A stretch of DNA of 63,829 bases, the filler included. It is 10 parts of 10 records of this genome, joined end to end, with 100 filler letters (N's around TTAATTAATTAA, not from the genome) between each part and the next. Parts side by side here need not be neighbours in the genome. Positions count along the whole stretch, not along the records: positions 47,000 to 52,831 come from SRR31156797_41060; 9 more parts are not named here. The stretch is one strand, 5' to 3'. Both the position numbers and the translations under genes were made by a program. Under the pieces are notes generated by a model. That model was not told where the DNA came from, searched no databases, and saw only the letters and a program-made list of their open reading frames with translations. Below, one piece after another: positions 1-52,931 of the stretch; position 1 is the stretch's first letter; the number at the start of each line of letters is the position of its first letter.

Positions 1-30
1 TGTAGGGGACGGTCGCGACCGTCCCCTACA
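1..30. repeat. GTAG-type REP-like perfect palindrome
   Basis: tgtaggggacggtcg|cgaccgtcccctaca is a perfect 30-bp palindrome with GTAG at its foot, at the contig start. Confidence 0.8.
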
Positions 31-46
31 TTACCATAAAATATGA

Positions 47-634
47 TTATAATTTTACAATCATTTCCGGCTTTTCAGATTTATAATCCAATTTCCAGAT
101 ATATGCAGTCGTTTTTTTATCGATCTTTTCTTTTTTATCGGCGTTATGAGACTTGACCTTCATTTTTTTAGGCAGGGTCACGGTTAGTTTCCCTTCGAGT
201 TTTGTGTTGAACTTTTCAACATCTTCCCTTGCCTCTTCCTCTACCTCAAAACCGCTGATCAGTAGTTGTCCTTCATCATCATTTTCAACAGCAAAGAATT
301 TCAGATCTTTGCTTAGAAAAAAGTAATCGGATCCATCGTCCTTGGTAATATTCACTTTTACTTTGATCTTACCTCTTCCAAGATCTTTGACCTTTTCGAA
401 ACCTTCGGTCTCTTTCAGTTCATCAATGATCTCTTGAAGATCCTCAGCGTCCTTATCACCGAATTCACCCTTGATATCCGCTTCCATAGCCGGCGCATAA
501 TTGAATTCACCCTCGTAGTTGAATGTGAATGTTCCATCCTTCTTCACGTCGATCTTCAGATCGTAATTGTCCGGAAAAAAACAGGATGACAGCAATATAG
601 CTGCCAAAGCAAGAACGAGCATGATCTTTTTCAT
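47..634 (-). CDS. hypothetical lipoprotein
   Basis: Start at MKKIMLV; lipobox LLSSC; acidic/lysine-rich mature region. Confidence 0.7.
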   Translation of the reverse strand: MKKIMLVLALAAILLSSCFFPDNYDLKIDVKKDGTFTFNYEGEFNYAPAMEADIKGEFGDKDAEDLQEIIDELKETEGFEKVKDLGRGKIKVKVNITKDDGSDYFFLSKDLKFFAVENDDEGQLLISGFEVEEEAREDVEKFNTKLEGKLTVTLPKKMKVKSHNADKKEKIDKKTTAYIWKLDYKSEKPEMIVKL

Positions 635-652
635 AAAATCCCCAAACTTAGT

Positions 653-680
653 GTGCGGAACAGACATGTCTGTTCCGTAC
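653..680. repeat. REP-like palindrome
   Basis: gtgcggaacagaca|tgtctgttccgtac, 28 bp with one G-T mismatch, intergenic. Confidence 0.7.
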
Positions 681-682
681 GA

Positions 683-1051
683 TTATTTACGGTTTTCAAA
701 TTTATCCAAAACCATTATATCAAACATAAACCCAAATCCTACACCCAATGCGGACATCATGATATCTAAAGGATCGTAAGTGCTGCCGAATACTTCAACA
801 CCGTAGGATTGCAGGATCTCCACCGCAAATGCGAAGATCAACACACCCAAGGCACCTACAACACGGGTCATGGGCACGCTCCACACCCTTCGCAGAGCCA
901 ACTGAACCAGTAAATATACGTTAAAGGGTAACAATATATTCATCAAATGGTTCCTTGCAAATTCACCGGATTCCGAATCGATGATGAAGTGCAGGGCGGC
1001 GATGAATAATGAGATGATAACGATGATTATGATTGAGATGCGGTTTTTCAT
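683..1051 (-). CDS. DUF2809/VanZ-like small membrane protein
   Basis: Four hydrophobic segments with the VEILQ...GSTYDPLD motif typical of DUF2809-like proteins. Confidence 0.6.
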   Translation of the reverse strand: MKNRISIIIIVIISLFIAALHFIIDSESGEFARNHLMNILLPFNVYLLVQLALRRVWSVPMTRVVGALGVLIFAFAVEILQSYGVEVFGSTYDPLDIMMSALGVGFGFMFDIMVLDKFENRK

Positions 1052-1052
1052 A

Positions 1053-1718
1053 CTATGGATTCCTAACAATAAAATCTGTTACAGCGTTGTACATTAACTC
1101 AACTTGCTCTTTTGTATATTCACTATAATCCCCATGAGCAGCCTTATTACGTAAATCAAGCCATGATGTAACAGCTTTCTGATCTAATTTATTATAAACA
1201 TCAGCTTTAAATAATTCTGAATTTAAAAAATCTGCTTTTAACGCAACTTCTTTAAAATCTTTGGTTCTTGTAACAGGAATTTTATTTTTAATACACAACT
1301 GGCGCAAATGTTCTTCAAGAACACTACCTATCATAACAGCAGCAGGATCTTTATAACCTTCATTTAGTAAATATTCAGCCATTTCAAGAAAATCAGTAAA
1401 TATTTCAGCAGAAATAATATCTCTTAAATTAAATAGCCATCCATTATCAATCTCTTGTTTCATTGCTTTAAGAATACCTTTACCCTGTTTTGTATCATAT
1501 GGATGAGCATCTTTAACATCATTATTAAATTCAATATAATATGGATGATCAACACCATAAATCATTTTAATAAAAGATAATGAACCAGCTTTAAACTCAT
1601 TAAAACTCTCCTCTGAAACATATCTTTGACCATGCGTAGATTGATGTGTAGTTTTAATTACACTATTTGCTAGTTCTATAAGATATTCAATTCTTTCAGT
1701 TATTTTTTTAATTTGCAT
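1053..1718 (-). CDS. HEPN-motif (DUF4145-like) protein
   Basis: C-terminal LRNKAAHG matches the R-x4-H HEPN signature, preceded by GSVLEEHLR; visibly lower GC than its neighbours. Confidence 0.65.
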   Translation of the reverse strand: MQIKKITERIEYLIELANSVIKTTHQSTHGQRYVSEESFNEFKAGSLSFIKMIYGVDHPYYIEFNNDVKDAHPYDTKQGKGILKAMKQEIDNGWLFNLRDIISAEIFTDFLEMAEYLLNEGYKDPAAVMIGSVLEEHLRQLCIKNKIPVTRTKDFKEVALKADFLNSELFKADVYNKLDQKAVTSWLDLRNKAAHGDYSEYTKEQVELMYNAVTDFIVRNP

Positions 1719-1747
1719 TATTTTCCCTTTTTATTCTTTGTTCCTTT

Positions 1748-1836
1748 GTTTGAGACGTGATGAATAAGCGTCTCTACACTTCACATTTCATGTACACTGT
1801 GACATGAATAGATCCTTCACTGCGTTCAGGATGACA
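1748..1836. repeat. cluster of REP-like hairpins
   Basis: gagacg...cgtctctac (GTAG foot on the - strand, 1752-1777) and gatccttcactgcgttcaggatgaca (1811-1836). Confidence 0.6.
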
Positions 1837-1862
1837 TGCAAATACCAGTCACTAGTCACCCG

Positions 1863-2354
1863 TCACTCGTTACTATTCGAGAAATGCATCTGAACTATCT
1901 TCCATTCTCCATCGCGCTTTTCCAGCACACCGGTCCAGCGAGCGTTTTCCCAGTTGACGGGCTGGCCTTTCCAGTTGTTGATATCGTCCAGGCCGCAGTA
2001 CCACCAGGCGACCTTGCCATCTTGGGAGAAATTGATGCGCAAGTCCCAGATATCGAAACGCACCGCCTCAAAATTCTCGCTCATCCAAAAGGCTTCGGCT
2101 TCTTTGAATTGCTCAAAACCTCGCACCACATGGTCATTGGGGTGGATCTCGGTATAATTACTGTCATTGGCAATAACGCTGTATAGCAGGTCAAGATCCT
2201 TGTCCTTCGCCCAGCCGATGCTACTGCGTATGGTCTTTTCAACTGCGATGAGTTCTTTTTCTTTGTCGAACATAGAATAATTCCTTGTTATAAGACTGAT
2301 GCCTCCCACAATGAGCAGGATGAAAGCTAGAAAAAGGAGGGTCGTTTTATTCAT
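1863..2354 (-). CDS. NTF2/SnoaL-like domain protein with N-terminal anchor
   Basis: N-terminal TM segment; C-terminal RWTGVLEKRDGEWKIVQMHFS is typical of the SnoaL-like fold. Confidence 0.75.
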   Translation of the reverse strand: MNKTTLLFLAFILLIVGGISLITRNYSMFDKEKELIAVEKTIRSSIGWAKDKDLDLLYSVIANDSNYTEIHPNDHVVRGFEQFKEAEAFWMSENFEAVRFDIWDLRINFSQDGKVAWWYCGLDDINNWKGQPVNWENARWTGVLEKRDGEWKIVQMHFSNSNE

Positions 2355-2448
2355 GGTTGCCTCCATTGTTTAATACATTTGTAGCTTATTTTAAGGGAAA
2401 ACAGCTTAATTCACAAGTGCTTTTAGGATTCTCGATATGCAATCTGTT

Positions 2449-2682
2449 CAACCCCTCTACAAGTTCGGGGTTGATTATTGTGGATAGCAAAACCCGGGAT
2501 TTCATCCCGGGTCATTACTTAGTTATACCCCTCGATAAACTCGGGGTTATAATGCTGGGTACTAGCACAAGGAAATTATGGGTTAATGCGTAAGAAATGA
2601 ATATTTACCATTAAATGTGAATAATGTTTTTAAGCATGAGAATCGCATTTACGAAAAGGTCCTGAAACAAGTTCAGGATGAC
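2449..2682. repeat. intergenic cluster of short inverted repeats
   Basis: Hairpins at 2449-2473, 2492-2512, 2527-2547 and 2660-2682; gttcaggatgac (2671-2682) is identical to 1824-1835. Confidence 0.6.
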
Positions 2683-2786
2683 TATGGATTGGATGTATTT
2701 AATAACAAATAATTCGTATAACTATTCACAAAAACACCATTTACTTCCACTTACTACTTACTACTTACTATTTACTTCTTTGAAAG

Positions 2787-2826
2787 AAAAATCCCGCGCT
2801 ACCCAGGGGACGGGCGCAACGGGATG
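2787..2826 (-). terminator. probable intrinsic terminator after the Cys/His-rich gene
   Basis: On the - strand, atcccg...cgggat forms an imperfect stem followed by ttttctttc. Confidence 0.45.
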
Positions 2827-2854
2827 TTCTAACAGTTAATGTTATAGAAGAGTC

Positions 2855-3262
2855 TTATTTGTGTTTTTTACCGTGTTCTTTATGTTTTTCTTTGCCTTCG
2901 CACTCGCTTTTGCACTCTTTTTTGTTCTCTTCGTGCTTGCATTCGCCATTACACTTATGTTCACCTTCGGCTTTCATGCCCTTGCATTCATGCTCTTTTT
3001 CAGCGTTTTTACACTCACCTTCGGCTTTTTTACATTCACCTTTGCTTTTGTGTTCGCCCTTGCCTTTTTTGCACTCACCTTCATGTTTGGCTTCGTGCTT
3101 TTCTTCACCGCAGGCTCCACAATTATCATGTTGTAGGCGTTCTTCTTTCTGGCATTTTCCGTCTACACCATCATGATTCAGATCAGGTGATGCGGCAAAG
3201 ACCAACATACTGCCCAAAAGCAATACAAGTAAGATCTTGCTGATATGCTTAAAATTGTTCAT
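2855..3262 (-). CDS. secreted Cys/His/Glu/Lys-rich low-complexity protein, putative metal binder
   Basis: Signal peptide ending VFA-A; 11 Cys and 11 His in the mature part; six ECK motifs; GGAG RBS. Confidence 0.7.
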   Translation of the reverse strand: MNNFKHISKILLVLLLGSMLVFAASPDLNHDGVDGKCQKEERLQHDNCGACGEEKHEAKHEGECKKGKGEHKSKGECKKAEGECKNAEKEHECKGMKAEGEHKCNGECKHEENKKECKSECEGKEKHKEHGKKHK

Positions 3263-3332
3263 CCTGTACTCCGTGTTTTGTTAATAAATATCTGACGCAA
3301 ACTTAAATTATAGAATTCCTGGATGAATTCTC

Positions 3333-3363
3333 TTACAGAATTATAAGATAATGTTATATAATT
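3333..3363 (-). promoter_or_regulatory. putative AraC-type tandem half-sites
   Basis: ttacagaatt (3333-3342) and ttatataatt (3354-3363) are direct repeats 21 bp apart, between the AraC gene and the Cys/His-rich gene. Confidence 0.4.
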
Positions 3364-3384
3364 TTTAGATTTAGGGTGTTTTTT

Positions 3385-3951
3385 TTAAATATCAAGCGCG
3401 CGATGATCCGGGCGATTCAGTTTTCTGAACGCAGTGGGCGTCATACCGGTCTCTTTTTTGAACTGGGCAGATAAGTGCGCTACGGAACTGTAATTCAATT
3501 GATGAGCAATTTCGGATAGGGTTAATTCCTTGTAGAACAGCAATTCCTTAACCCGCTCGATCTTTTGCTTTAAAATATATTTTTCGATCGTTAAACCTTC
3601 AACACTGGAGAATAAATGGGAAATATAACTGTACTCCAAATGGAGTTTTCTGGATAAAAAAGTGGAATACAGTTCATCCATCGGTTCTTTATTAAAATGG
3701 ATCTGCTCAATGATCAGAGTTTTGATCTTAGAGATCAAGACGGATTTTGTAGAACTCAAGAGCTCAAAGCCCATTTCCAACAAATCTTTTTCTAAAGCTT
3801 TATGCTGTTCTTCACTGAGGGCTTTTTCAAGAATGACCTCACCCAATTGCACACTTTGGAAATCTATGGATCTGGATTCCAGGATCAACTTGACCGCCAT
3901 AATGCAACGGGGACAAACCATGTTCTTTATATGTAATGTCGGTTTCTTCAT
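3385..3951 (-). CDS. AraC-family regulator with N-terminal HMA-like CxxC domain
   Basis: IKNMVCPRC at the N-terminus; C-terminal AraC HTH (LSEIAHQLNYSSVAHLSAQFKKETGMTP). Confidence 0.9.
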   Translation of the reverse strand: MKKPTLHIKNMVCPRCIMAVKLILESRSIDFQSVQLGEVILEKALSEEQHKALEKDLLEMGFELLSSTKSVLISKIKTLIIEQIHFNKEPMDELYSTFLSRKLHLEYSYISHLFSSVEGLTIEKYILKQKIERVKELLFYKELTLSEIAHQLNYSSVAHLSAQFKKETGMTPTAFRKLNRPDHRALDI

Positions 3952-4050
3952 TGTGTCATTTATATTTCGTTATCTTACCTGAGTTCCCAATTTACAACGC
4001 CTAATATCGACAAATAATAACAGTTCCTACAAACTACCACCTTCTAACTA

Positions 4051-4671
4051 CTACTTTCTATCTTTAGGCGGCCTAAAATCAATGGCACCCTTATCCCTGC
4101 CCCATTTGACAGTACGGTCTTTCTTTTCGATCTTTTCTTTTTTGGGCTTTTCTTTGGGTGCTTTTTTCTCTTCTTTGATCTTTTCTTCGGCTTCTTTTCT
4201 TATGTCAGGCACAAAGAATTTTTCTTCGGGCTTCTCTTCATTTGGTGTGTAGGGATGGCCTCCGGGTTCAGGAATATCACCGTCAACGGGAACAGGACCG
4301 AATTTATTTTCAGCAGGATCGCCATCTTTGATAAGCAGCATTATCAATATGATCCACCCGACAATAGGAATGAAGACATAGAGCAGTTTTGTCCATTCCT
4401 CACCGACATCATGCAAGCGTCGGACGCCAATTGCAAGTCCCGGAACAAGAAGCAATAAGGAATACATATTATTGAAGGTACCATTGGTCATGCCCCAAAA
4501 ACCGGATTCGTGCGTACCCAGAATATTATCGATCAGAATGCTTGCCCATGCAAAAATGATATTGAATAAAACGAACATCCAGTACGCTTTTTTACTTGTT
4601 CTGCCTTTAAAATCAGCATATCGCTTCAATGCTGAAACATAGTACTGTTGAATTGCTTTTTTTATGTCCAT
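4051..4671 (-). CDS. DUF805 membrane protein
   Basis: YADFKGRT..YWMF, VRRLHD and NKFGP motifs; charged C-terminal tail. Confidence 0.85.
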   Translation of the reverse strand: MDIKKAIQQYYVSALKRYADFKGRTSKKAYWMFVLFNIIFAWASILIDNILGTHESGFWGMTNGTFNNMYSLLLLVPGLAIGVRRLHDVGEEWTKLLYVFIPIVGWIILIMLLIKDGDPAENKFGPVPVDGDIPEPGGHPYTPNEEKPEEKFFVPDIRKEAEEKIKEEKKAPKEKPKKEKIEKKDRTVKWGRDKGAIDFRPPKDRK

Positions 4672-4702
4672 TGTGGTCTCCTCATTAGAAAAATAGATCA
4701 TT

Positions 4703-4731
4703 GTTGGTCGGACACATGGATCCGACCCTAC
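4703..4731. repeat. GTAG-type REP-like hairpin
   Basis: - strand reads gtagggtcggatccatgtgtccgaccaac; degenerate heptamer repeats lie next to it (4731-4760). Confidence 0.65.
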
Positions 4732-4748
4732 TCGTTACTCGTTACCGG

Positions 4749-5555
4749 TCACTGGTTACTGATATGTACGTCCATTTGTGGATAAGGTATATTCAATCCT
4801 TCTTTCTCAAACGCAGTATAGACTTTTTCGTTCATGTCAAAAAATACACCCCAATAATCTTCAGTTTTAACCCAGGCGCGTACCACAAAATTCACTGAAG
4901 AGTCAGCCAGTTCTGCCAAGCCGATAAATACCTCCGGATCTTTCAGGATCCGTTCATCTTCATCACATAGTCTTTTTAGAACTTCACGGGTTTTCTTAAT
5001 ATCATCACCATAGCCCACGCCGAAAGTCCAGTCCACACGACGTTCTTTCTGCTCGGAATAGTTAATAAGAGATCCCGTTGACAAACCACCATTAGGAATC
5101 ACAATGATCTTGTTATCGGGAGTTTTCAAGATCGTATTGAATATCTGTATTTCGGAAACAACCCCTGAATAACCCTGAGCTTCAATAAAATCACCAACTC
5201 GAAAAGGTTTAAAAACCAAGATCATGGCACCGCCTGCAAAATTTTGCAGTGTTCCGGATAAAGCCATACCTATGGCCAAACCGGCAGCACCGATCAAGGC
5301 AGTAAAGGACATCATTTCCACTCCGACCATGGTCAATACGGAAATGATCAGCAATACCCTCAGCAAGATGCTTACAATGCCTTTCAAGAAGGGTTCTAAT
5401 GTGGGATCGACCTTGCTTTTTTCCAATCCCTTGGCAACTGCTTTGTTAATGGCTTTAATGACCCAACCACCAACGATCAGGACTGCAATACCACCTAATA
5501 ATTTTGGACCGTAAAGCGCTACAACTTCAAGTACTTTCTTTAAGATGTCTTGCAT
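4749..5555 (-). CDS. mscS: small-conductance mechanosensitive channel
   Basis: Three TM helices, GLAIGMALSGTLQNFAGG, KPFRVGDFIE and C-terminal IPYPQMDVH. Confidence 0.92.
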   Translation of the reverse strand: MQDILKKVLEVVALYGPKLLGGIAVLIVGGWVIKAINKAVAKGLEKSKVDPTLEPFLKGIVSILLRVLLIISVLTMVGVEMMSFTALIGAAGLAIGMALSGTLQNFAGGAMILVFKPFRVGDFIEAQGYSGVVSEIQIFNTILKTPDNKIIVIPNGGLSTGSLINYSEQKERRVDWTFGVGYGDDIKKTREVLKRLCDEDERILKDPEVFIGLAELADSSVNFVVRAWVKTEDYWGVFFDMNEKVYTAFEKEGLNIPYPQMDVHISNQ

Positions 5556-5621
5556 ATTTTTCCCTTTTCTTTTATTTATTGCTGATTGTTCAATAATAGG
5601 GATTTATGGTGCTATTGTCAA

Positions 5622-5649
5622 GCACTGGGCACTGGGCACTGGGCACTGG
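5622..5649. repeat. heptamer tandem repeat (GCACTGG)x4
   Basis: Four exact copies running into the contig end. Confidence 0.85.
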
Positions 5650-5749
5650 NNNNNNNNNNNNNNNNNNNNNNNNNNNNNNNNNNNNNNNNNNNNTTAATTA
5701 ATTAANNNNNNNNNNNNNNNNNNNNNNNNNNNNNNNNNNNNNNNNNNNN
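5650..5749. other. artificial contig linker
   Basis: 44 N + TTAATTAATTAA + 44 N. Confidence 0.99.
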
Positions 5750-5915
5750 ATATATTGTATTGTTTATAGTGAAAGCCAGGCGGTGGAAGTGTCGGCGCCA
5801 TGGCGCCTTCGGTTCCAGGGGTGTATCCACCACCCGCTGACAGTGCTGTCGATGCCGTAACCAGTGTAAAGATAACCGCAATTATACTTAAAACCGCATT
5901 TTTACACAGACCCAT
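5750..5915 (-). CDS. SphA/MetA-pathway-type outer-membrane protein, N-terminal fragment
   Basis: Signal peptide followed by GYTPGTEG..APTLPPPGFHYKQY, a typical start for this family; truncated by the linker. Confidence 0.6.
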
Positions 5916-6108: not shown

Positions 6109-6588
6109 TTATTTCCGCATCAAATAAATCATTGCGTATTTTAACGTGCTATGAACTTCGGCAATGGCCATCGGAACTTTTTCCAAAAAGAAGGTGGCGC
6201 CGGCTGCATAGGAACGCTCCATGATTTCCTTGTCCGGTTTGACCGTGTATTGAATCACTGGCAAGACGGGAAAAGCCTTGCGAATGCCTTTGAGGGCGTT
6301 CAAGCTGATATCCACGGCGTTTTGGGATCCACCGGTTGCTTTAGCCTGCTCGTGCCAGTACAAGTCCAGAAGCACCATATCCGGCTTTTCATTTTCGATA
6401 AGGGCCTGCCATTGGTCAATTTCACCGCTTTTCAGAACCTCGAAATCCACCCCTGCGAGTTTGGAGCCGGTCAGCTCTTCCTCAATGGAAGCAACCCAGG
6501 TATCGTCAAAGGCCAGTTGCTCACTGTCATGGGTTTTTCTGAACGCATCACTGAAAATGTCGTCAAAAAATAAAACTTTAATTTTCAT
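6109..6588 (-). CDS. single-domain response regulator (receiver)
   Basis: VLFFDD, PDMVLLD, VIQYT and AGATFFLEK receiver motifs, with an insertion after the acidic pair. Confidence 0.8.
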   Translation of the reverse strand: MKIKVLFFDDIFSDAFRKTHDSEQLAFDDTWVASIEEELTGSKLAGVDFEVLKSGEIDQWQALIENEKPDMVLLDLYWHEQAKATGGSQNAVDISLNALKGIRKAFPVLPVIQYTVKPDKEIMERSYAAGATFFLEKVPMAIAEVHSTLKYAMIYLMRK

Positions 6589-8359
6589 TTTGCACCTCCC
6601 GGTCATTGATGATTGTATAGGGAAAGGTCAAACAAACACGGTATGGATCCGTTTCCCTTTCGAAACCACCCCCCAATTCCTTCATGATGGATCTCATCTG
6701 AGGGGTACCGCGGCCACTGATTGTTTTGTAAGGTAGTCCGTTGTCCTGGAATCGGACCGACAAGCCTTCCTCCTTTTTTACTGACAGACACAGGTCAATT
6801 TTACCGATTGCCAAGCGGTCACGGTTCTGTCTTTCTGCTATGGCCCGCATGCTGTTGACCAGTAAGTTCTCAAAAATTGTCTCCAACTGCTCGTAATTGG
6901 TCCGCACATGGGCATTTTGGGGTACATCTTCAGAATTGTTCAGGTTGATTTCGATGCCGGGCCGGTGGGAACGCTTTTGATTCACCCAGGCACTGAGCCA
7001 TTTTTGCAGATGAATGTTGCGTTGCCGGCACTGTAAAATCTTCCCTTTTTCATGCAGTCCGGACAAAAGGTCGTCAAGGCCGCGCAGGGCCGTAGAGATT
7101 TTGGGTTGTCCTAAAAGTTTGGGGTATTCCTGTATCAAAGCGGTTTTCAACCCACCAAGGCAGTAAAAACCGGGGTTATGAATCGTCAGGCTGATCTGCG
7201 ACAACAGATCTGCCACACGTTCATTGAGCAAAAACGATTTGAGAAGTGCGTTGTATAGGGAGAGAAACGGGCTCATGTGCAGAAATTTGCAGAAGTCGTT
7301 GCGTGAAGAAGCCAGGTGAATGACACCCAGATCCTGGTTCAGCATATGTAGCGGATAGACGACATAGGAACGGATCGTGTCGATGACATCGAGCAAAAAA
7401 TGTTGTTCGATTTGTTTAATATCTTTGTTTGCTTGAATGCGGTCCCGAAACCGTTGAAGACGACGGCTTGTGCCCTTGCCTTCAATCGGATAGGAAATAT
7501 GGGAGTCATCGCACAAAACGGAATCGGAAGAGGGTTTGAACTCAGGAAAATAGATCTCCTTGATCTCTTCGCCACGCCATACAACCATGTAGAGGGCATG
7601 GCTTTCATAGCCGGCGCCACGACGGAAAAAGGCGAAACCGAGATCTGCCGCCGAAAGAGTCCGGTAGGCCGTAACCGCGTCCGTGTAATCCACCTTGGCG
7701 TTGGAAGCAATCAAACGAGACAGATTGTTGAGCTTGTAGTAGGCGGTGTTGAGCGCAATTCGGTTTTTTGTGTCCAGCAGGTAATTGACGATCAGGGGGC
7801 CGTATTGGGACGCAAAATGTTCAAGCGGTGCCTGACTGTTCACAGAAAATGGCGCTTTGTGGCGATAGCGGCTTAGCTCGATCATGCAGAAGATTTCATT
7901 TTTCCGTTTTATGGGAAGGATCAGCGTGCTCGCAACCGGTCGTTTGATCTCCTCCACATAGTGACGGTCCATAAAACGGTAGATTTCTAAAAACGGGTTG
8001 GCAATACCTTCTTTGCTCTCTTCCCAGATATCGTCGACGAGAAGTGTTTTTCCTGTTTTGATAACGTGCCCGGTGAAGCCCTTGCTGGGATTGTAGAGGT
8101 GAAGCTCCATATCCTCTCTCAGCCAGGGCTCGCCGTCTTTGACAATACAGACTTTTTCTACCCTTCCGCCCCGGGGCAAAAGACTGATTTGGCCGATATC
8201 CGCCTCCACACTGTCCATTAAAAGGTTCAGTAATTCATAGGCAATGTGATCCACGGACTGTTCATCCCCTGAAATCGCCATGGCAGGCAATTTCTTGAAA
8301 AACCGTTCCGCCGAAATGGCATGATGCACTGGCGAGATGTCTTCTTTGCGATGAACCAT
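6578..8359 (-). CDS. GAF-domain sensor histidine kinase (atypical)
   Basis: N-terminal GAF (KGFTGHVIKTGKTLLVDD, STLILPI); HATPase N box FENLLVNS, G1 QDNG and short G2 SGRG; overlaps the receiver gene. Confidence 0.7.
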   Translation of the reverse strand: MVHRKEDISPVHHAISAERFFKKLPAMAISGDEQSVDHIAYELLNLLMDSVEADIGQISLLPRGGRVEKVCIVKDGEPWLREDMELHLYNPSKGFTGHVIKTGKTLLVDDIWEESKEGIANPFLEIYRFMDRHYVEEIKRPVASTLILPIKRKNEIFCMIELSRYRHKAPFSVNSQAPLEHFASQYGPLIVNYLLDTKNRIALNTAYYKLNNLSRLIASNAKVDYTDAVTAYRTLSAADLGFAFFRRGAGYESHALYMVVWRGEEIKEIYFPEFKPSSDSVLCDDSHISYPIEGKGTSRRLQRFRDRIQANKDIKQIEQHFLLDVIDTIRSYVVYPLHMLNQDLGVIHLASSRNDFCKFLHMSPFLSLYNALLKSFLLNERVADLLSQISLTIHNPGFYCLGGLKTALIQEYPKLLGQPKISTALRGLDDLLSGLHEKGKILQCRQRNIHLQKWLSAWVNQKRSHRPGIEINLNNSEDVPQNAHVRTNYEQLETIFENLLVNSMRAIAERQNRDRLAIGKIDLCLSVKKEEGLSVRFQDNGLPYKTISGRGTPQMRSIMKELGGGFERETDPYRVCLTFPYTIINDREVQNEN

Positions 8360-46899: not shown

Positions 46900-46999
46900 N
46901 NNNNNNNNNNNNNNNNNNNNNNNNNNNNNNNNNNNNNNNNNNNTTAATTAATTAANNNNNNNNNNNNNNNNNNNNNNNNNNNNNNNNNNNNNNNNNNNN
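46900..46999. other. artificial contig linker
   Basis: 44 N + TTAATTAATTAA + 44 N. Confidence 0.99.
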
Positions 47000-47001
47000 T
47001 T

Positions 47002-47029
47002 TGGTGGAGGCGGCGGGAGTCGAACCCGC
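47002..47029 (-). ncRNA. ssrA: tmRNA (ssrA) 3'-end fragment, putative att core
   Basis: GCGGG-TTCGACT-CCCGC T-arm followed by CGCCTCC-A-CCA; the upstream body of the RNA is absent; lies beside the integrase 3' end. Confidence 0.75.
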
Positions 47030-47070
47030 TGACATTCAGCAATGGCGGGCCTTCCGGGGTGGGGTGTAAC

Positions 47071-48306
47071 TCAAGTGTAACTCTCATCGTTCCCCGCCTT
47101 TTGTTTTAGTTCGACAATTTCACCCTTACCCGAGGCCAGCTCCGCGACCTTGATTTGCTTTTTGGCATCCGGGAAAAAGTACCGATCAAAAGCCTTGTTT
47201 GTCTCGTGTTGGCTCCCGAACGCCTTGATCTCATCAGGTGTCATGTAGTTCTGAAGGTCGGTCACTGAGGTGTGACGCGTGCCTCCGTAAAGGTCCACGC
47301 CCGGCAGTCCGACCTTATCCCGGCCAGCAACCCACGTCTTATAAAACATCTTCGGGCCGAACGGCATCCCCGGTTTAATCCTCGATTGTATCGCCTTGTC
47401 ATGCCGGAAAAGCGGCATGTTAGGCATGCCACGGGGCAGGGACCGCAAAAGTTCGAGGTCGTCGGCCAACAGATAAAAGCCCTTGGTCTTGTCCGGCTTC
47501 ATGGCTTTAGTCGGTTTGCGGACGATTACAAGGCCGGTCTCGTAGTTGACATCACCCTCCGTGATCCGGTTCAGGTCGCCAGGGCGAAGCAGGGTATACC
47601 TCAAAAGCCACTGAACCCCGATCCATCGGCGCGGCTGGTCAGCGAATAGCTCTTTACACTTTTCCAGGACGGCAAGCTGAGACTTTTTATTTGTGATGTT
47701 TCGGCGCCCGAGCGTGTAATTTATCGTCGGGAACTTAGGCAGCCTTTTAATGGGTGGGTGATGTTCGTCGTAGTCCTCAAGCAGCCAGACCCAAAATTTA
47801 TGAAGCCCCATACAGTAGTTATGTCGGGTCTTGCCGGCAATGCCGTCAAGAGAGTGGAGGAATGTCTTTATATCTCGCCCCGTGATGTTCTTTACGTTCG
47901 CGTGCTTAAAGAACTTTTTCGCCTTAACCATGTAGTTTTTATAGCTATCCTTTGTCGATTTGCTCAGTTCGTCTGTAGCGACTGCCCGCTCAAGCTCTCC
48001 TGTCCATTCGTCGGCCAGGACCGAAAAAGACAACGGGCGGTCCTTGACTTTATAGTCCCTCGGATCAAAAGTCCCGTGACTGTCTGGGTCGCCTATTTTT
48101 GCCCGGATTCCACCAAGCCAGGCATGAGAGCGTTTATACATGTAGGCGCCGGAAAACCGCTTCATCGTCTTGCCGACTTTGGCGATCAGGCGTGTGGCTT
48201 TCTGGTCGGGATGGTTCGGACAGCAGACTTCAAGGCGTTCGCCCAAGTCCTGAAAGACGGTATTACATTTCGGACAACGTTGGTCGGAGTAAACGCCGCC
48301 TAACAT
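47071..48306 (-). CDS. int: tyrosine integrase
   Basis: LRPGDL (R), YGGTRH (R), SQH and FDRY (Y) catalytic residues; N-terminal CPKC...CPNH; ATG at 48306 with AGGCGG RBS (alternative TTG at 48342). Confidence 0.9.
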   Translation of the reverse strand: MLGGVYSDQRCPKCNTVFQDLGERLEVCCPNHPDQKATRLIAKVGKTMKRFSGAYMYKRSHAWLGGIRAKIGDPDSHGTFDPRDYKVKDRPLSFSVLADEWTGELERAVATDELSKSTKDSYKNYMVKAKKFFKHANVKNITGRDIKTFLHSLDGIAGKTRHNYCMGLHKFWVWLLEDYDEHHPPIKRLPKFPTINYTLGRRNITNKKSQLAVLEKCKELFADQPRRWIGVQWLLRYTLLRPGDLNRITEGDVNYETGLVIVRKPTKAMKPDKTKGFYLLADDLELLRSLPRGMPNMPLFRHDKAIQSRIKPGMPFGPKMFYKTWVAGRDKVGLPGVDLYGGTRHTSVTDLQNYMTPDEIKAFGSQHETNKAFDRYFFPDAKKQIKVAELASGKGEIVELKQKAGNDESYT

Positions 48307-48326
48307 ACAAACACCGCCTGTGTTGG

Positions 48327-48387
48327 AAAAAGAAAGCGCCAACCAAGAACCCTCAAGTTCTCGGTAAAGCGCTTGGAAAAGTGGTGA
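48327..48387 (-). ncRNA. candidate small antisense RNA / attenuator in the int leader
   Basis: Downstream of a TTGACA-17-TATCTT promoter; stem aagcgc/accgagaac-loop-gttcttggt/gcgctt followed by a U-tract; the first 28 nt are complementary to 49943-49970. Confidence 0.6.
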
Positions 48388-48392
48388 ACTAA

Positions 48393-48421
48393 AAGATATG
48401 ACAATTTTAGCATTTTGTCAA
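48393..48421 (-). promoter_or_regulatory. sigma70-type promoter upstream of int
   Basis: -35 TTGACA (48416-48421), 17-bp spacer, -10 TATCTT (48393-48398). Confidence 0.7.
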
Positions 48422-48464
48422 CCTCGTTGTTTTAACGCCTTCTATGGGCCGCTCTAAAGCGTTG

Positions 48465-48857
48465 TTATTCTTTTCTTTTGATCCACCGACGAAAAGAATC
48501 GCCGAAGTGTATTTCAAACTCGACTTGAAACCATCCGCTCATTTGTTCAGAAGAATTGATATAATCCATATATGAGCGGAAGAAACGCCAAAACTCTCTC
48601 GGCTCCAAGTCAACCAGATCATCAAAATCAGTGTCGATAATTATGAATTTGACCGAAGGGATTTCGTCCGGTGCTGTTTCGTGTAGAAGTTTCCATGTTT
48701 GCTCGTCTATCTCTTTTATTTCATGGGCCATATTGGAGATTGTACCCGCCTTAATCCCTGCTGCCCTTTCCAGGTCTATCCATCCATCATAGCCGCCGTG
48801 CTTATAATAATATTCATTCAGTTCGCTAATCAGGTGTTCGGAATCCAGCATTTTCAT
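48465..48857 (-). CDS. HTH protein paralogous to the cI N-terminal domain
   Basis: Aligns without gaps to the cI HTH region (10/43 identities by eye); AAGGAG RBS; no S24 domain. Confidence 0.6.
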   Translation of the reverse strand: MKMLDSEHLISELNEYYYKHGGYDGWIDLERAAGIKAGTISNMAHEIKEIDEQTWKLLHETAPDEIPSVKFIIIDTDFDDLVDLEPREFWRFFRSYMDYINSSEQMSGWFQVEFEIHFGDSFRRWIKRKE

Positions 48858-48932
48858 GTTTGTATCTCCTTATTTCAATACTGCCGGAGCCAGACTGCGC
48901 ACCCTCCCCCTCGCGCACCGGGTGTTGACAGG

Positions 48933-49583
48933 TTACTCTGATCTGTAATAGCCTTCTACCCTGTATATCCTCACCCCTTCACCATTTTCAGAGGTGAGGA
49001 TTATTGTTTTATGTTTAGTGTTGTCTGACATTAAGTATATTGTTCCCTCCTGTTCTTGATACCGTTTTACGATACGCTCTCCATCTTCGCCGGGGAACGA
49101 GGCGAAGCATAGTTTTCCGTTCTGAAGCGGTTTTGATGGAACTACAAGTGCCAGGTCCCCCTCTGACAGTGCTGGTTCCATAGAATCTCCATGTATTCTA
49201 ACATAAAACGAGTTTGCGTCTACGGCTTCGGTTATGGCCGGGAAATAAGAACTCGCATTTCCCACTGGATACCCTCCGTCGCTCCACGCACCCGGTTGTC
49301 CGGCTCCGGCATCGAATACTGGTAACAAAACAGATTTCAAGTTGCCCTCGTCCAGTTCTTCGTCATCCGAGAGCCACGGAGGGGCTGGGATATCGTTTGG
49401 ATAGGCGTCGTTCAGCTTTTCCCATGAATCGGTCTTAGGTCTCGAAATCTCTTTGGCTATCTTCATAACAGCGGGTCGACTCAAACCCGATTTTTTGCCA
49501 ATCTCTGTCCACGCCCCTCTACCCATTCTGTCGGCGAGGCGGTTAAGGGCAATTATCAAGGGGGTGTATTGGATTTTTTTCAT
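48933..49583 (-). CDS. cI-like repressor (HTH + S24 autopeptidase)
   Basis: Ala-Gly site (DAGAG), GDSMEP (Ser) and IVKR (Lys); divergent from cro. Confidence 0.9.
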   Translation of the reverse strand: MKKIQYTPLIIALNRLADRMGRGAWTEIGKKSGLSRPAVMKIAKEISRPKTDSWEKLNDAYPNDIPAPPWLSDDEELDEGNLKSVLLPVFDAGAGQPGAWSDGGYPVGNASSYFPAITEAVDANSFYVRIHGDSMEPALSEGDLALVVPSKPLQNGKLCFASFPGEDGERIVKRYQEQEGTIYLMSDNTKHKTIILTSENGEGVRIYRVEGYYRSE

Positions 49584-49632
49584 AACGACCTTCCTTTAAA
49601 AAAAACCAGAGGTTGCAACAAAATTATTGCAT

Positions 49633-49702
49633 ATCGTAATTACGATTTCAAGAAAAAGAAGTAAATTATTTGTTGACAAGAAACGTAACTACGATTACGT
49701 TT
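49633..49702 (+). promoter_or_regulatory. immunity-region operators and rightward promoter
   Basis: Palindrome atcgtaattacgat (49633-49646); TTGACA (49673-49678), 17 bp, TACGTT, overlapped by aaacgtaa-N6-ttacgttt (49681-49702). Confidence 0.7.
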
Positions 49703-49720
49703 AGTCTCAGAGGGTGAGAT

Positions 49721-49927
49721 ATGAGAGTTTATGACAGGAAAGCAATTCAAAAACTAAGAGAGGGATTAGGGCTGAATCGTGCAGAATTTGGGCGTCGCCT
49801 AAACATGACGAGGCAACAGGTCACCCTCCTTGAAGAGGGGATGAGTAAGCCAAACGTCAAAACCTTGGAGCGGCTCATGGCTGCATTTGGAGTGGATGAA
49901 ACTCATTTTTTTTATTCTGAAACGTAA
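49721..49927 (+). CDS. Cro-like XRE HTH protein
   Basis: 68 aa; LREGLGLNRAEFGRRL...EEGMSKP; divergent from cI. Confidence 0.88.
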   Translation: MRVYDRKAIQKLREGLGLNRAEFGRRLNMTRQQVTLLEEGMSKPNVKTLERLMAAFGVDETHFFYSET

Positions 49928-50003
49928 GTGTAATTACGAAAACTCGGTAAGGCGCTTGGAAAAGTGGTGATTTCGGGGTGCCTAAACTAACAAAGGAGCA
50001 TTT

Positions 50004-50489
50004 ATGGACTTGATTCCGTTTGAGTTTGAGTCTCGACAAGTTCGGGCGTTAACAGGCGGCGATGGAGAATCCTGGTTTATGGCAACCGATGTGTGCAAAG
50101 CCCTGAGCATAAAAAACATAGCCCAAGAAATGGCCGAATTGGAGGAAGATGAACTCTCTACGCTTGACATGTTTGGTCGGGGTAAAGTCGATATTGTAAA
50201 TGAACTCGGCCTTTATTCCCTAATCCTAAGTTCCTGTGAACCAAAAGCAAAAAAGTTCATTCATTGGATCGTCCACGAAGTGGTTCCGTCTGTGTGTAAG
50301 ACCGGCGGATACGGGATCCTCGCGGCGGACATGTCCGAAACCCACCGGCGCGATATCGCGCAAACTCTCCGGGCCATGACAAGAGCTAAAGACCCGCTTC
50401 ACATTGCACAGTTGGCTGAGGCTCTTTACTGGCTGACAGGGCGGCGGTTTACCCATCTTCTCCCAGGCAAGATCAAGGAGCAATCATGA
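50004..50489 (+). CDS. BRO-N domain antirepressor-like protein
   Basis: WFMATDVCKAL, VNELGLYSLI and AKKFIHWIVHEVVPS motifs. Confidence 0.85.
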   Translation: MDLIPFEFESRQVRALTGGDGESWFMATDVCKALSIKNIAQEMAELEEDELSTLDMFGRGKVDIVNELGLYSLILSSCEPKAKKFIHWIVHEVVPSVCKTGGYGILAADMSETHRRDIAQTLRAMTRAKDPLHIAQLAEALYWLTGRRFTHLLPGKIKEQS

Positions 50490-50605
50490 TCACAGCAAAA
50501 TACGAACATGGCAAGTGGCATGTCCGGGCACCCGGTTTGTTGGTCGTAAGTTCGCACCTGGGCAGGGCGCTCCGGTATGCGTTTGAGAAGGTGCTGGAAT
50601 GGTGA
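50486..50605 (+). CDS. small phage protein (39 aa)
   Basis: AAGGAG RBS; ATGA overlap with the BRO stop; MITAKYEHGKWHVRAPG...; below the ORF-track cutoff. Confidence 0.55.
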   Translation: MITAKYEHGKWHVRAPGLLVVSSHLGRALRYAFEKVLEW

Positions 50606-50865
50606 CGGAAAAAGATATCGACCAGGTCGAGGCCTGGCTGAGGCTGAGCCATAAGGAAAAGGATAACCAGTGCCCGTTTTACTGCGCCCAGGCCTGCCGC
50701 AACGATGGTGAGCGCTCTCCGGCCTGTGAGGCGATATTTCCGAACCTTCCTTTATGGGATGACGGATCGCCGTTCGAATGTCCGTGCGCTAAATGGGGCG
50801 TCGACGCGGTCGTGTTTACGGCATCCATATTCCTACAGAAACGGGAATCCTCGAATGACAAGTGA
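50599..50865 (+). CDS. Cys-rich hypothetical phage protein
   Basis: Six Cys (CPFYCAQAC...C...CPC); overlaps both neighbours. Confidence 0.6.
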   Translation: MVTEKDIDQVEAWLRLSHKEKDNQCPFYCAQACRNDGERSPACEAIFPNLPLWDDGSPFECPCAKWGVDAVVFTASIFLQKRESSNDK

Positions 50866-51130
50866 AAGCTACATGCGGATCGCCCGACTTCTTCGGCATA
50901 TGGAGCGCATTTATGCGGTTCCAGAATCAGAGGTTCGGGATTGTCCGAAGTGCGAACATCTTCAGACGTGTTGGAAGCGCGTATGTCTGCTGGACCCCGA
51001 GATTCCAAATTCAATGATGCCGGAGTTTCGCTATCCCGGTTACGAAGAAGAGCCCAAAGAAGCCGAGGACGAACGGCGGGCGCTTAGCTGGCTTTTCAGG
51101 GACGTCTGTCCGTTCGTGGAAAGAAGTTGA
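50855..51130 (+). CDS. hypothetical phage protein with a CxxCxxxxxC motif
   Basis: Probable start MTSESY overlapping the previous gene; CPKCEHLQTC. Confidence 0.55.
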   Translation: MTSESYMRIARLLRHMERIYAVPESEVRDCPKCEHLQTCWKRVCLLDPEIPNSMMPEFRYPGYEEEPKEAEDERRALSWLFRDVCPFVERS

Positions 51131-51139
51131 GGAGGGGAG

Positions 51140-51355
51140 ATGACCTACGTTTCGATGAAACAAATCTCCGATTTTACAGGAGCTAAAAGCCTACAGGTTA
51201 AACCTTTCGCCTGGGCGCTTCGGGCCTTGGGCGATGAGGTCGGCCCCAAGACCCTGGCGAAAGGCTTGCGATCAATGGCCACGGTCTTGGAACAGAAGGA
51301 GGCGCATAAAACATGCTTACCGAACAACAATATCAAGAACGGCAATCGGGTATAG
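51140..51355 (+). CDS. hypothetical phage protein
   Basis: GAGGAGG RBS; same strand and operon. Confidence 0.55.
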   Translation: MTYVSMKQISDFTGAKSLQVKPFAWALRALGDEVGPKTLAKGLRSMATVLEQKEAHKTCLPNNNIKNGNRV

Positions 51356-52197
51356 GCGGCAGTGACGCGGCGGTCGTCTGCGGTTTAAGCCCGTGGAAAA
51401 CGCCCTTGGAATTATATCTTGAGAAACGTGGCGAAATCCCGAGAAACGACCGCGAGACAGAGGCCATGAAATGGGGAACCATTTTAGAGAGCGTGGTCGC
51501 CAAGGAGTTTTCCGAGAGGCACGGCCTTAAAGTCAGGCAGACACGGACCCGCTGGTCAAAGGTCCATCCATTCATGTGTGTGAACATGGATAGGGCCATT
51601 GATAAAACAGATGAGCATGGAACGGGCTACCTCGAATGCAAAACAAGCAACGCTTTTAAGGCCTCCGATTGGGGCAAAGATCCATCCGGGCCCGTACCTG
51701 ATTATTACTACATCCAGTTGCAGCATGGTCTTGCTGTAACTGGTTATTCCTGGGGCGCCCTCGCGGTCCTGATCGGGGGCAATACCTACCGCGACTATTT
51801 TTTCGAACGCGACAACATATTGATATCCAACCTGATCCAGATCGAGCGCAATTTTTGGGTTAACCACGTTGACGCCGGCATCCCGCCCGAGCCGGATTTC
51901 GATCACAAAACAACCTCAGCTTTACTTGATGTTCTATACCCTTCACCCGATGGGATTATCGATCTTCCGCCTGGAGTCGCCCAGTGGGCGGCAGTGGAAC
52001 AGTCCGCGGCGGAACAAATCAAGATGTATGCGGCAGTCCGAGAAGGGGCGCAAAACCACATTAAAGACATTATGGGCGACGCCGGAGTCGGTAGGCTTCC
52101 GGGCGGCGGCGGCTACGTGCGCAAAAAAGTCAAACGGAAAGGTTACGTCGTAGAGAACACAGAGTATCTCGACTTTAGATTCAAGAAAAAACTTTAA
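51313..52197 (+). CDS. YqaJ-like viral exonuclease
   Basis: GIGGSD, SPWKTPLELY, NMDR, LECKT and YYIQLQH motifs. Confidence 0.92.
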   Translation: MLTEQQYQERQSGIGGSDAAVVCGLSPWKTPLELYLEKRGEIPRNDRETEAMKWGTILESVVAKEFSERHGLKVRQTRTRWSKVHPFMCVNMDRAIDKTDEHGTGYLECKTSNAFKASDWGKDPSGPVPDYYYIQLQHGLAVTGYSWGALAVLIGGNTYRDYFFERDNILISNLIQIERNFWVNHVDAGIPPEPDFDHKTTSALLDVLYPSPDGIIDLPPGVAQWAAVEQSAAEQIKMYAAVREGAQNHIKDIMGDAGVGRLPGGGGYVRKKVKRKGYVVENTEYLDFRFKKKL

Positions 52198-52208
52198 AGG
52201 GGGAATAA

Positions 52209-52831
52209 ATGACTGACGAATTGGAATTGAGACGCAAAGAAAACGTTACCACGATCCGGGATTATCTCCGGCGTAGCGAGAGGGAGATCGCCTCCGCCCT
52301 GCCGAAACATGTCACGGCTGACCGTATGATGCGTGTGGCCATGACCGCCATCCAGAGAAACCCGAATTTACAGGAATGCAATGCAACAAGTCTGATCGCC
52401 GCTATTATCGAAGCCTCACAACTCGGGCTTGTTCCCGACGGCGTCCTGGGCCATGCCTATCTTGTTCCTTTCAATACCAAGAAATATGGCAAGGTCGCAC
52501 AGCTAATACCTGGATACAGGGGGCTTATCGATCTGGCCCGGCGGTCGGGCGAACTGCAGTCTATATCCGCCCACGTGGTCTATACGGCAGACGAGTTCGA
52601 GTTCGAGTTCGGCCTCGAAGAAAAGCTTCGCCATCGCCCGTTTATGGGCGTGGGTGAGCGCGGCCCTGCATTATGCGCCTATGCCGTCGCCCATCTCCGG
52701 GACGGCGGCAACGCTTTTGATGTAATGGGCGTCGGCGAAATAGAGGCTGTGCGCCAGACCTCAAGGGCGGCGAACGATGGTCCATGGGTTGACCATTGGG
52801 GCGAGATGGCCCGTAAAACTCTTGTTAAACG
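52209..52831 (+). CDS. recT: RecT single-strand annealing protein, 3'-truncated
   Basis: LGLVPD..GHAYLVPF, GYRGLIDLARRSG and GPW....EMARKT motifs. Confidence 0.93.
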
Positions 52832-52931
52832 NNNNNNNNNNNNNNNNNNNNNNNNNNNNNNNNNNNNNNNNNNNNTTAATTAATTAANNNNNNNNNNNNN
52901 NNNNNNNNNNNNNNNNNNNNNNNNNNNNNNN
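52832..52931. other. artificial contig linker
   Basis: 44 N + TTAATTAATTAA + 44 N. Confidence 0.99.

Follow-up and report, generated by a model that had tools for sequence, protein, structure and literature searches.

A 28-base repeat in the immunity region of an uncultured temperate phage may encode the two halves of an RNA-RNA pair

We analyzed a 28-base repeat in the immunity region of a temperate phage, which lies within a 63.8-kb stretch of DNA (the window). One copy of the repeat precedes the integrase gene (int), which is transcribed leftward, and the other lies in the leader of a rightward early gene for a Bro-N domain protein that resembles the antirepressor Ant. (We will refer to this gene as BRO.) We propose that the two copies encode the halves of a trans-acting RNA-RNA pair in the lysis-lysogeny switch of the prophage, an explanation that we consider possible rather than probable. 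This interpretation is plausible and internally consistent, and it derives from the in-silico anatomy of one uncultured phage. The size of the repeat is not rare in itself. What is unusual is the orientation of the copies together with the exact fit of the repeat to half of a terminator.

The repeat and its predicted transcripts

The repeat (CTCGGTAARGCGCTTGGAAAAGTGGTGA; repeat family D2) has exactly two matches in the window, both found by pattern matching and both on the + strand. Copy 1 (48360..48387) lies between orf130 and int, which are both on the - strand, and copy 2 (49943..49970) lies in the intergenic leader between cro and BRO. The original prediction was that a 28-mer occurs twice, with 27 of 28 bases identical, on one DNA strand but in oppositely transcribed units, and both the pattern search and the orientation of the genes agree with this. 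Copy 2 does lie between cro and BRO, as had also been claimed: cro stops at 49927, BRO starts with the ATG at 50004, and copy 2 is wholly inside the 76-nt untranslated gap. The sole difference between the copies (which are 96% identical) is an A in copy 1 and a G in copy 2, and their longest exact run in common is 19 nt. The similarity ends sharply at both edges, and the flanks cannot be aligned. If up to three mismatches are allowed, the 28-mer has no match in 100 shuffles. There is a weak third match (18/28) at 50570-50597, at the end of a small open reading frame (ORF) after the Bro-N gene; by our estimate, a match of this quality is expected by chance about one time in ten.

Several other origins for the repeat could be ruled out. 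An artefact of assembly was rejected because an independent assembly has no differences and because the exact shared run is just 19 nt. Arm-type sites for the integrase were rejected because copy 1 is about 1.3 kb away from the tmRNA core. A target duplication by a transposon was rejected because the 1.55 kb between the copies comprises orf130, cI, and cro, without a transposase. Finally, a duplicated promoter was rejected because no pair of hexamers is common to both copies in either orientation (by eye).

We then examined the sequence around copy 1. A scan for sigma-70-like promoters identified TTGACA-17-TATCTT on the - strand (48421..48393, "P_int"), which matches at 10 of 12 positions. Only two sites in the contig score this well, versus 0.61 expected per shuffle, and the other one is at the expected position of the cI promoter. 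These promoters are near the E. coli consensus. A site as good as P_int arose in 0.9% of 5,000 shuffles of the 89-nt intergenic stretch (P = 0.009). With the start placed 7 nt beyond the -10 hexamer, transcription is predicted to begin at about 48386, which is the edge of the repeat, or the first base of the repeat's complement. This is the promoter, and the start site, that had been proposed from the letters.

Just downstream, RNA folding predicts an intrinsic terminator on the - strand (48327..48374), with a hairpin at 48334-48374 and a U tract at 48327-48333. As expected for an intrinsic terminator, the hairpin is rich in G+C and directly precedes the U tract. The leader RNA folds as AAGCGCU..ACCGAGAACU[UGAG]GGUUCUUGGU.GGCGCUU and then UCUUUUU, with a folding energy of -27.7 kcal/mol for the whole leader (z = -2.9) and -23.3 kcal/mol for the 41-nt hairpin alone. 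The terminator ends 20 nt before the ATG of int (48306). From 5' to 3', the leader comprises UCACCACUUUUCC, which is unpaired, then the 41-nt hairpin, and then UCUUUUU. Copy 1, when read in the - strand RNA, is the 13 unpaired nucleotides at the 5' end plus 15 of the 18 nucleotides of the terminator's 5' arm. In other words, the repeat extends from the predicted start site to 3 nt short of the hairpin loop. Folding thus upholds the earlier claim that the int leader forms an intrinsic terminator about 20 nt before the ATG, with the repeat in its 5' arm. (A simple terminator scan did not list this terminator, presumably because of the bulge.) Overall, the leader has the anatomy of a small-RNA gene: a promoter of its own, an unpaired seed, and a terminator with a U tail, all in silico. 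Base-pairing small RNAs are usually built in this way, with a 5' seed, a terminator hairpin, and a U tail.

The same region (48325-48407, - strand) has a sub-threshold match to the Chlorobi-RRM family in Rfam, at 26.2 bits versus a gathering score of 45 (E = 0.031). The match spans the full model and covers the promoter-proximal leader and the terminator, and the hairpin is its probable source.

The other half of the putative pair is the rightward transcript. There, a predicted hairpin in the + strand RNA (49951-49982; 8-nt loop, AGUGGUGA) includes the 3' part of copy 2. When we cofolded the two transcripts, they formed 28 contiguous intermolecular pairs, including one U.G pair at the variable position. 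The dimer is predicted at -71.1 kcal/mol, versus -27.7 and -24.6 kcal/mol for the monomers, which favors the dimer by 18.8 kcal/mol (ddG = -18.8 kcal/mol). The nascent leader without its 3' arm is nearly unstructured, at -4.6 kcal/mol. In the leader's site, the first 13 nt have probabilities of being unpaired of 0.5-1.0, and in the copy 2 site, the last 8 nt have probabilities of 0.94-1.0. Because both stretches are mostly unpaired, a first contact between a loop and a single strand is available. So, in silico, the leader RNA has an accessible and complementary target in another transcript. Cofolding also bears out the suggestion that the single mismatch becomes a G-U pair in the RNA duplex, although by our own estimate, about one in three random substitutions would have kept the pairing as U.G. 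The folding check that the original prediction had proposed turned up the anatomy that it needed, in somewhat better form than first stated.

Pairing might also affect the translation of BRO. When the 28-mer was held unpaired, the freed GGGGUGCC tended to pair with the Shine-Dalgarno sequence of BRO. For two of the three sizes of folded segment, the mean probability that the Shine-Dalgarno sequence is unpaired dropped from about 0.53 to 0.11-0.15; for the third, it dropped from 0.56 to 0.42. This is a model-dependent hint that the Shine-Dalgarno sequence would be sequestered upon pairing.

The anatomy, the folds, and the energetics are as described above; from these we infer that both RNAs would be produced, that they would meet, and that their pairing could have two outcomes. 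There would be two sources of leftward transcripts: the promoter at 48421..48393, whose product would be about 60 nt long, and the cI-orf130 message. Transcripts of either kind would stop at the terminator before int and would carry the unpaired UCACCACUUUUCC and the 5' arm of the terminator. In its untranslated stretch between cro and the Bro-N gene, the rightward early transcript would contain the exact complement, with the partner of the seed exposed in a hairpin loop. In the first step, in a lysogen, the leftward RNA would pair with leaky early transcripts. The Ant-like gene and the genes downstream would then be silenced, via a 28-bp duplex that would be open to RNase III and perhaps also via the freed anti-Shine-Dalgarno stretch. 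The second step is bolder. Upon infection or induction, abundant early transcript would pair with the int leader as it emerges, ahead of the synthesis of its 3' arm; the terminator could not form, and int would be transcribed. The layout does match that of the engineered small transcription activating RNAs (STARs), in which a trans-acting RNA is complementary to the 5' half of a terminator and to a linear region upstream of it. If both steps occurred, this would be a natural, STAR-like, reciprocal switch, in which the early mRNA opens int and the lysogenic transcript silences the Ant-like gene, all by means of one duplex. We consider this full two-way switch to be unlikely, if far from negligible.

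Alternatively, the two copies might be DNA sites for a single phage regulator. This could be orf130, Cro, cI with a second specificity, an excisionase-like protein, or Int. Its binding would block the int promoter at +1 to +28 and would block or modulate early transcription into the Ant-like gene. Copy 1 does occupy positions +1 to +28 of the promoter, which is a classic position for a repressor, and copy 2 abuts an operator-like site. Also, the 28-mer contains GGTAAAG and GGAAAAG, 12 bp apart, which could be direct half-sites, and orf130 may be a helix-turn-helix (HTH) protein (this is a lead only). Nevertheless, we think that a protein site is improbable. The copies match at 96% over 28 contiguous bases and end abruptly, which is more than is usual for protein sites, while the phage's own operators are 80% alike. 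This suggests that base pairing is a better fit than a protein site. Furthermore, the 28-mer has no dyad symmetry; GGWAARG occurs eight more times in the contig, on either strand, so it is a weak word; and there is no third copy, as the best other match is the one with 18/28. The operator motif of this phage, CGTAA-N6-TTACG, is absent from the 28-mer (by eye): it adjoins copy 2 and is not inside it.

The orientation of the copies also bears on whether they could be the same RNA element in both transcripts, similar to nut or put. Both copies would then modify RNA polymerase or bind one RNA-binding protein. For this, a promoter such as a leftward one of the establishment type would be needed on the right side of copy 2. 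Copy 2 is directly after cro, where lambda has nutR, and there is a weak leftward promoter-like site at 50514..50486 (9/12). But in divergent units, nut or put elements need to be inverted on the DNA, and the two copies are direct. The site at 50514 is at the level of chance, as seven such sites were found versus 5.4 expected. No gene similar to N or Q is among the ORFs that we scanned. And copy 1 belongs to a terminator, whereas an antitermination signal would have the opposite effect. We therefore regard a same-sense element as very improbable.

Relatives and base rates

Several observations weigh against a functional RNA pair. First, we did not find a relative with the same immunity region in any collection that we searched, and the 28-mer is in no relative. 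A blastn search with the whole contig against 50,697 phage records gave no match, and neither did positions 48300-50010 against plasmids. The 71-nt leader gave just two 24-nt matches among the phages, both in Bacillus phages (E = 0.2), which we take to be chance. An exact 24-mer pattern gave no hits in viral contigs. At the protein level, the best match of cI among genome contigs is 55% identical over the C-terminal 130 residues (locus L001, on a 4.8-kb contig), and this locus lacks int, synteny, and the 28-mer. In viral contigs, cI matched 46 loci, at up to 41% identity and over parts of the C-terminal domain. The int, orf130, and BRO proteins had no matches in viral contigs, nor did P0001, the closest homologue of int, and a direct protein-seeded scan of metagenome contigs found no match to int. 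Overall, the integrase has 420 homologues at E ≤ 1e-20, of which the best, P0001 from the Logan assemblies, is 62% identical. Among 401 genomes sampled from one phylum, there were seven matches to int at E ≤ 1e-60, all at 41% identity or less. The closest locus that can be read is that of the next homologue, L214 (48% identical). It has the arrangement repressor-orf158-int without a gap, a leader, a terminator, or such a repeat. (The ORF before int in L214 is not similar to orf130, with E = 39.) Lastly, a search of sequencing runs found this DNA in one run only, likely the source sample, and no RNA run was listed.

Second, repeats of this size are not rare. Alignment A1, of 41 integrases, led us to 80 metagenome loci with integrases at 41% identity or less. 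After dropping 31 loci with under 1.5 kb upstream of int, we compared the 200-nt int leader to the upstream 6 kb in the remaining 49. Four of these have a repeat with a score of 20 or above (L166, direct; L150, L163, and L191, inverted). So just one of the 49 has a direct repeat, and in L166 the genes that follow the two copies are on the same strand, which means that the two RNAs would be alike and not complementary. None of the repeats in L166, L163, or L150 would give complementary RNAs in divergent units. Around S24-family repressors (L002-L126), 35 of the 125 loci have at least one repeat with a score of 20 or above within 6.6 kb, and many of these are duplicated promoters, whole terminators, or paralogous genes. 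With such repeats at 35 of 125 loci, a repeat alone is weak evidence of function.

The repeats near other integrases lend some weight to a protein-binding site, as proposed above, in that the long repeats in L150, L163, L191, and L166 resemble DNA sites or duplicated promoters. In L166, which is a high-G+C element, a 47-nt direct repeat with four differences is found in the int leader (2167-2213) and 3.6 kb upstream (at about 5773-5819), and it looks like a duplicated promoter or leader. In L163, inverted 27-nt repeats (6478-6504 and 6849-6875) flank a 66-amino-acid ORF just before int, which looks like a small DNA-binding or excisionase-type protein. In L150, inverted 30-nt repeats (5454-5483 and about 6878-6907) are just upstream of int, with about 1.4 kb between them. 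The inverted repeats of L163 and L150 may be arm-type or regulator sites.

We also asked how common terminators are in these leaders. Of 78 int leaders, nine have a terminator-like hairpin (-10 kcal/mol or lower, with a T-rich tail), including four with an identical sequence, and all nine are weaker than the -23.3 kcal/mol hairpin of this phage. Separately, in the last 30 nt before int, the distant relatives L159 and L163 have hairpins such as CUUCCCCUUCAUUCCAAGGGGAGG that overlap the ribosome site of int. This hints that a sequestered Shine-Dalgarno sequence could control the translation of int in this integrase family.

Third, the match of 27/28 implies that the copy is recent, and a recent copy requires neither function nor selection. 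Regardless of any pairing, the terminator already has a routine function in closing the cI-orf130 operon. Antitermination in trans would be confined to the roughly 30 nt between the synthesis of the two arms. The effect on the Shine-Dalgarno sequence varies with the segment that was folded. The evidence for reading the repeat as RNA was assembled post hoc from a single sequence. And a word search of the open-access literature did not identify a natural trans-acting RNA that blocks an intrinsic terminator by pairing, which is not a proof of absence.

Much of this is what we would expect if the repeat is a recent and functionless duplication. In this case, template switching or illegitimate recombination, as modules were shuffled, would have placed a copy of 28 bp from one intergenic region in the other, and the copy would not yet have decayed. 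The terminator would merely end the cI-orf130 operon, and the complementarity would be a by-product. With one difference in 28, there is no need to assume any time under selection. The unrelated flanks, the frequency of similar repeats at S24 repressor loci, and the lack of conservation of the pair in any relative that we found are all consistent with a duplication. A caveat is that a duplication needs more than one coincidence: a boundary of the repeat is at the predicted start site of P_int, and this promoter is in its own right improbable by chance. The copied segment takes in the 5' arm and the unpaired toehold and leaves out the loop and the 3' arm, and the second copy landed in an untranslated gap, with its matching end in a hairpin loop. 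Furthermore, no simple mechanism is known to us by which a segment of only 28 bp would be moved across 1.6 kb in direct orientation. On the other hand, these arguments against a duplication were all noticed post hoc. We regard a functionless duplication as a serious contender, if a doubtful one.

The prophage and its surroundings

The window consists of ten contigs of 5.3-8.4 kb, joined by linkers (N44-TTAATTAATTAA-N44), and their G+C content ranges from 0.36 to 0.53. The bin of contigs probably mixes organisms, in which case the adjacent segments say little about the host of the phage. The pair of 28-mers is in the contig at 47000-52831 (5,832 bp; G+C content 0.51), which is the left end of a temperate phage that is integrated at ssrA (the tmRNA gene). 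At the start of the contig is a 3' fragment of the tmRNA gene, which is the attachment-site end of the prophage (47002..47094, - strand; Rfam tmRNA, E = 2.4e-7). Its score of 25 bits is below the gathering score, as it is a fragment, and ARAGORN did not find a complete tmRNA gene at the contig start.

In an independent assembly of the source run, this whole stretch corresponds to bases 1-5832 of a single 39,505-nt contig, with no differences. The longer contig shares the start base and the 30 nt that derive from tmRNA, and several short contigs branch at 47000-47029. Its length of 39,505 nt fits a complete phage genome, from att to att.

Next to the tmRNA fragment is int (47071..48306, - strand), which encodes a tyrosine integrase of 411 amino acids from the ATG at 48306 (PHROG 1, integrase, E = 3.9e-12; weak Phage_int_SAM domains). 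Near the N-terminus of this family, C11, C14, C29, and H32 are invariant across the 41 sequences of alignment A1, a pattern suggestive of an N-terminal domain that binds zinc. In many members of the family, the catalytic domain is missing from the precomputed Pfam domains.

Continuing rightward, orf130 (48465..48857, - strand) separates cI from int in the lysogeny operon and has no Pfam or PHROG family. Its neighbors in a protein atlas are HTH proteins, including HTH_3 and HTH_31 clusters, with scores of 0.91-0.93. We consider these as leads only, which raise the possibility that the lysogeny operon encodes another DNA-binding protein, orf130, besides cI. Then comes the cI-like repressor (48933..49583, - strand), with a Peptidase_S24 domain (PF00717, E = 1.9e-19) and a match to PHROG 4 (transcriptional repressor).

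Between cI and cro is a divergent promoter and operator region (49623..49699). The promoter scan identified a P_RM-like promoter on the - strand (TTGAAA-17-AATAAT, 49651..49623). By eye, we also found a palindrome, ATCGTAATTACGAT (49633-49646), a rightward TTGACA (49673-49678, + strand), and an operator-like CGTAA-N6-TTACG (49684-49699). The cro-like HTH gene (49721..49927, + strand; 68 amino acids; HTH_3, E = 1.9e-11) follows. A third operator-like site is at the extreme end of cro (49919..49938, with CGTAA-N6-TTACG at 49923-49938). It belongs to repeat family D5: over 20 nt, it matches the site at the rightward promoter (49680-49699) with 80% identity, and 4 nt separate it from copy 2. It might serve in DNA looping as a distal operator, or it might act as a roadblock ahead of the Bro-N gene.

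The Bro-N gene itself (50004..50489, + strand) encodes 161 amino acids and matches both Bro-N in Pfam (E = 3.6e-15) and PHROG 130, anti-repressor Ant (E = 1.1e-29). Its putative Ant-like function is taken from the name of the family. To its right, also on the + strand, are small ORFs and the recombination genes YqaJ and RecT-like.

Comparison with known systems

If the RNA pair works as we propose, then this phage could keep int silent during lysogeny and express it each time the lytic promoter fires, all without a protein factor. The pair would also be a compact natural part, of about 60 nt plus 28 nt, for the design of RNA circuits. If the repeat is only a recent duplication, then there is nothing unusual about the immunity region or about its operon terminator.

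The original prediction had suggested a scan with Rfam for C4, isrK, and similar families. At E ≤ 1, cmscan of 46990-52880 gave no match to C4, IsrK, or any other known regulatory family, and reported only the tmRNA fragment, a permuted-tmRNA fragment, and the sub-threshold match to Chlorobi-RRM.

In phages P1 and P7, the C4 antisense RNA (of immI), and in P22, the sar RNA, are small RNAs of the lysogen that silence the leader of an antirepressor. C4 and its target derive from one transcript, from which C4 is cut, and they pair via two short segments; sar is an antisense RNA in the strict sense, as it overlaps its target. The proposed pair resembles these in setting a small phage RNA against an antirepressor leader. 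It differs in that the partners are in separate, non-overlapping, divergent units and would pair via one 28-nt block. Also, unlike C4 or sar, the RNA here would have two further roles, in that it would form the leader of int and terminate the cI operon.

The layout of the genes is more similar to some type I toxin-antitoxin systems. In IstR-1/tisB, OhsC/shoB, and OrzO/zorO, a short direct repeat in divergent units leads to pairing between an RNA and the 5' leader of an mRNA. As in those systems, the pairing here would be well upstream of the ribosome site. The target, however, belongs to a phage early operon and encodes an Ant-like regulator rather than a small membrane toxin, and we did not see an ORF for a toxin.

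Satellite phage P4 also has repeated complementary segments in its immunity region: its CI RNA pairs with seqA and seqC, which causes premature termination on the same leftward transcript. In both cases, RNA would act on RNA to decide termination. But here, pairing would prevent termination, and it would be between opposite transcripts.

To our knowledge, activation in trans by pairing with the arm of a terminator is known only from engineered RNAs. For STARs, the accessible text of a 2015 preprint describes synthetic RNAs that are complementary to the 5' stem of a terminator and that activate transcription in trans, and it states that no small RNA, natural or synthetic, had been known until then to activate transcription (10.1101/022772). 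As described there, the anatomy is the same as what we propose, with a trans-acting RNA against the 5' side of an intrinsic terminator ahead of a gene, leading to readthrough. The difference is that STARs are engineered, while the activator here would be a predicted stretch of an mRNA. In their accessible parts, a 2019 review describes effects of small RNAs on Rho-dependent termination, and in a 2022 screen, the sole small RNA that lowered intrinsic termination acted indirectly.

Prophages provide other examples of a promoter with an immediate terminator that yields a short trans-acting RNA, with readthrough giving the downstream mRNA. According to the portions of the papers that are available, IsrK of Gifsy-1 activates translation by acting on its own readthrough isoform (PMC4825925), and the StxS RNA of Shiga phages arises from the late promoter (PMC7547250). 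As far as these accounts go, neither system involves int or an Ant-like gene.

For int, the closest case is that of ICEKp1, where terminator-like stem-loops in the 5' untranslated region of int attenuate the integrase transcripts (PMC13023037, in part). There, as described in that part, control is in cis, with a switch of promoter between the integrated and excised states, and no trans-acting RNA partner is mentioned. In sum, the antisense control of phage antirepressors is already known, and the layout proposed here would be a variant of it.

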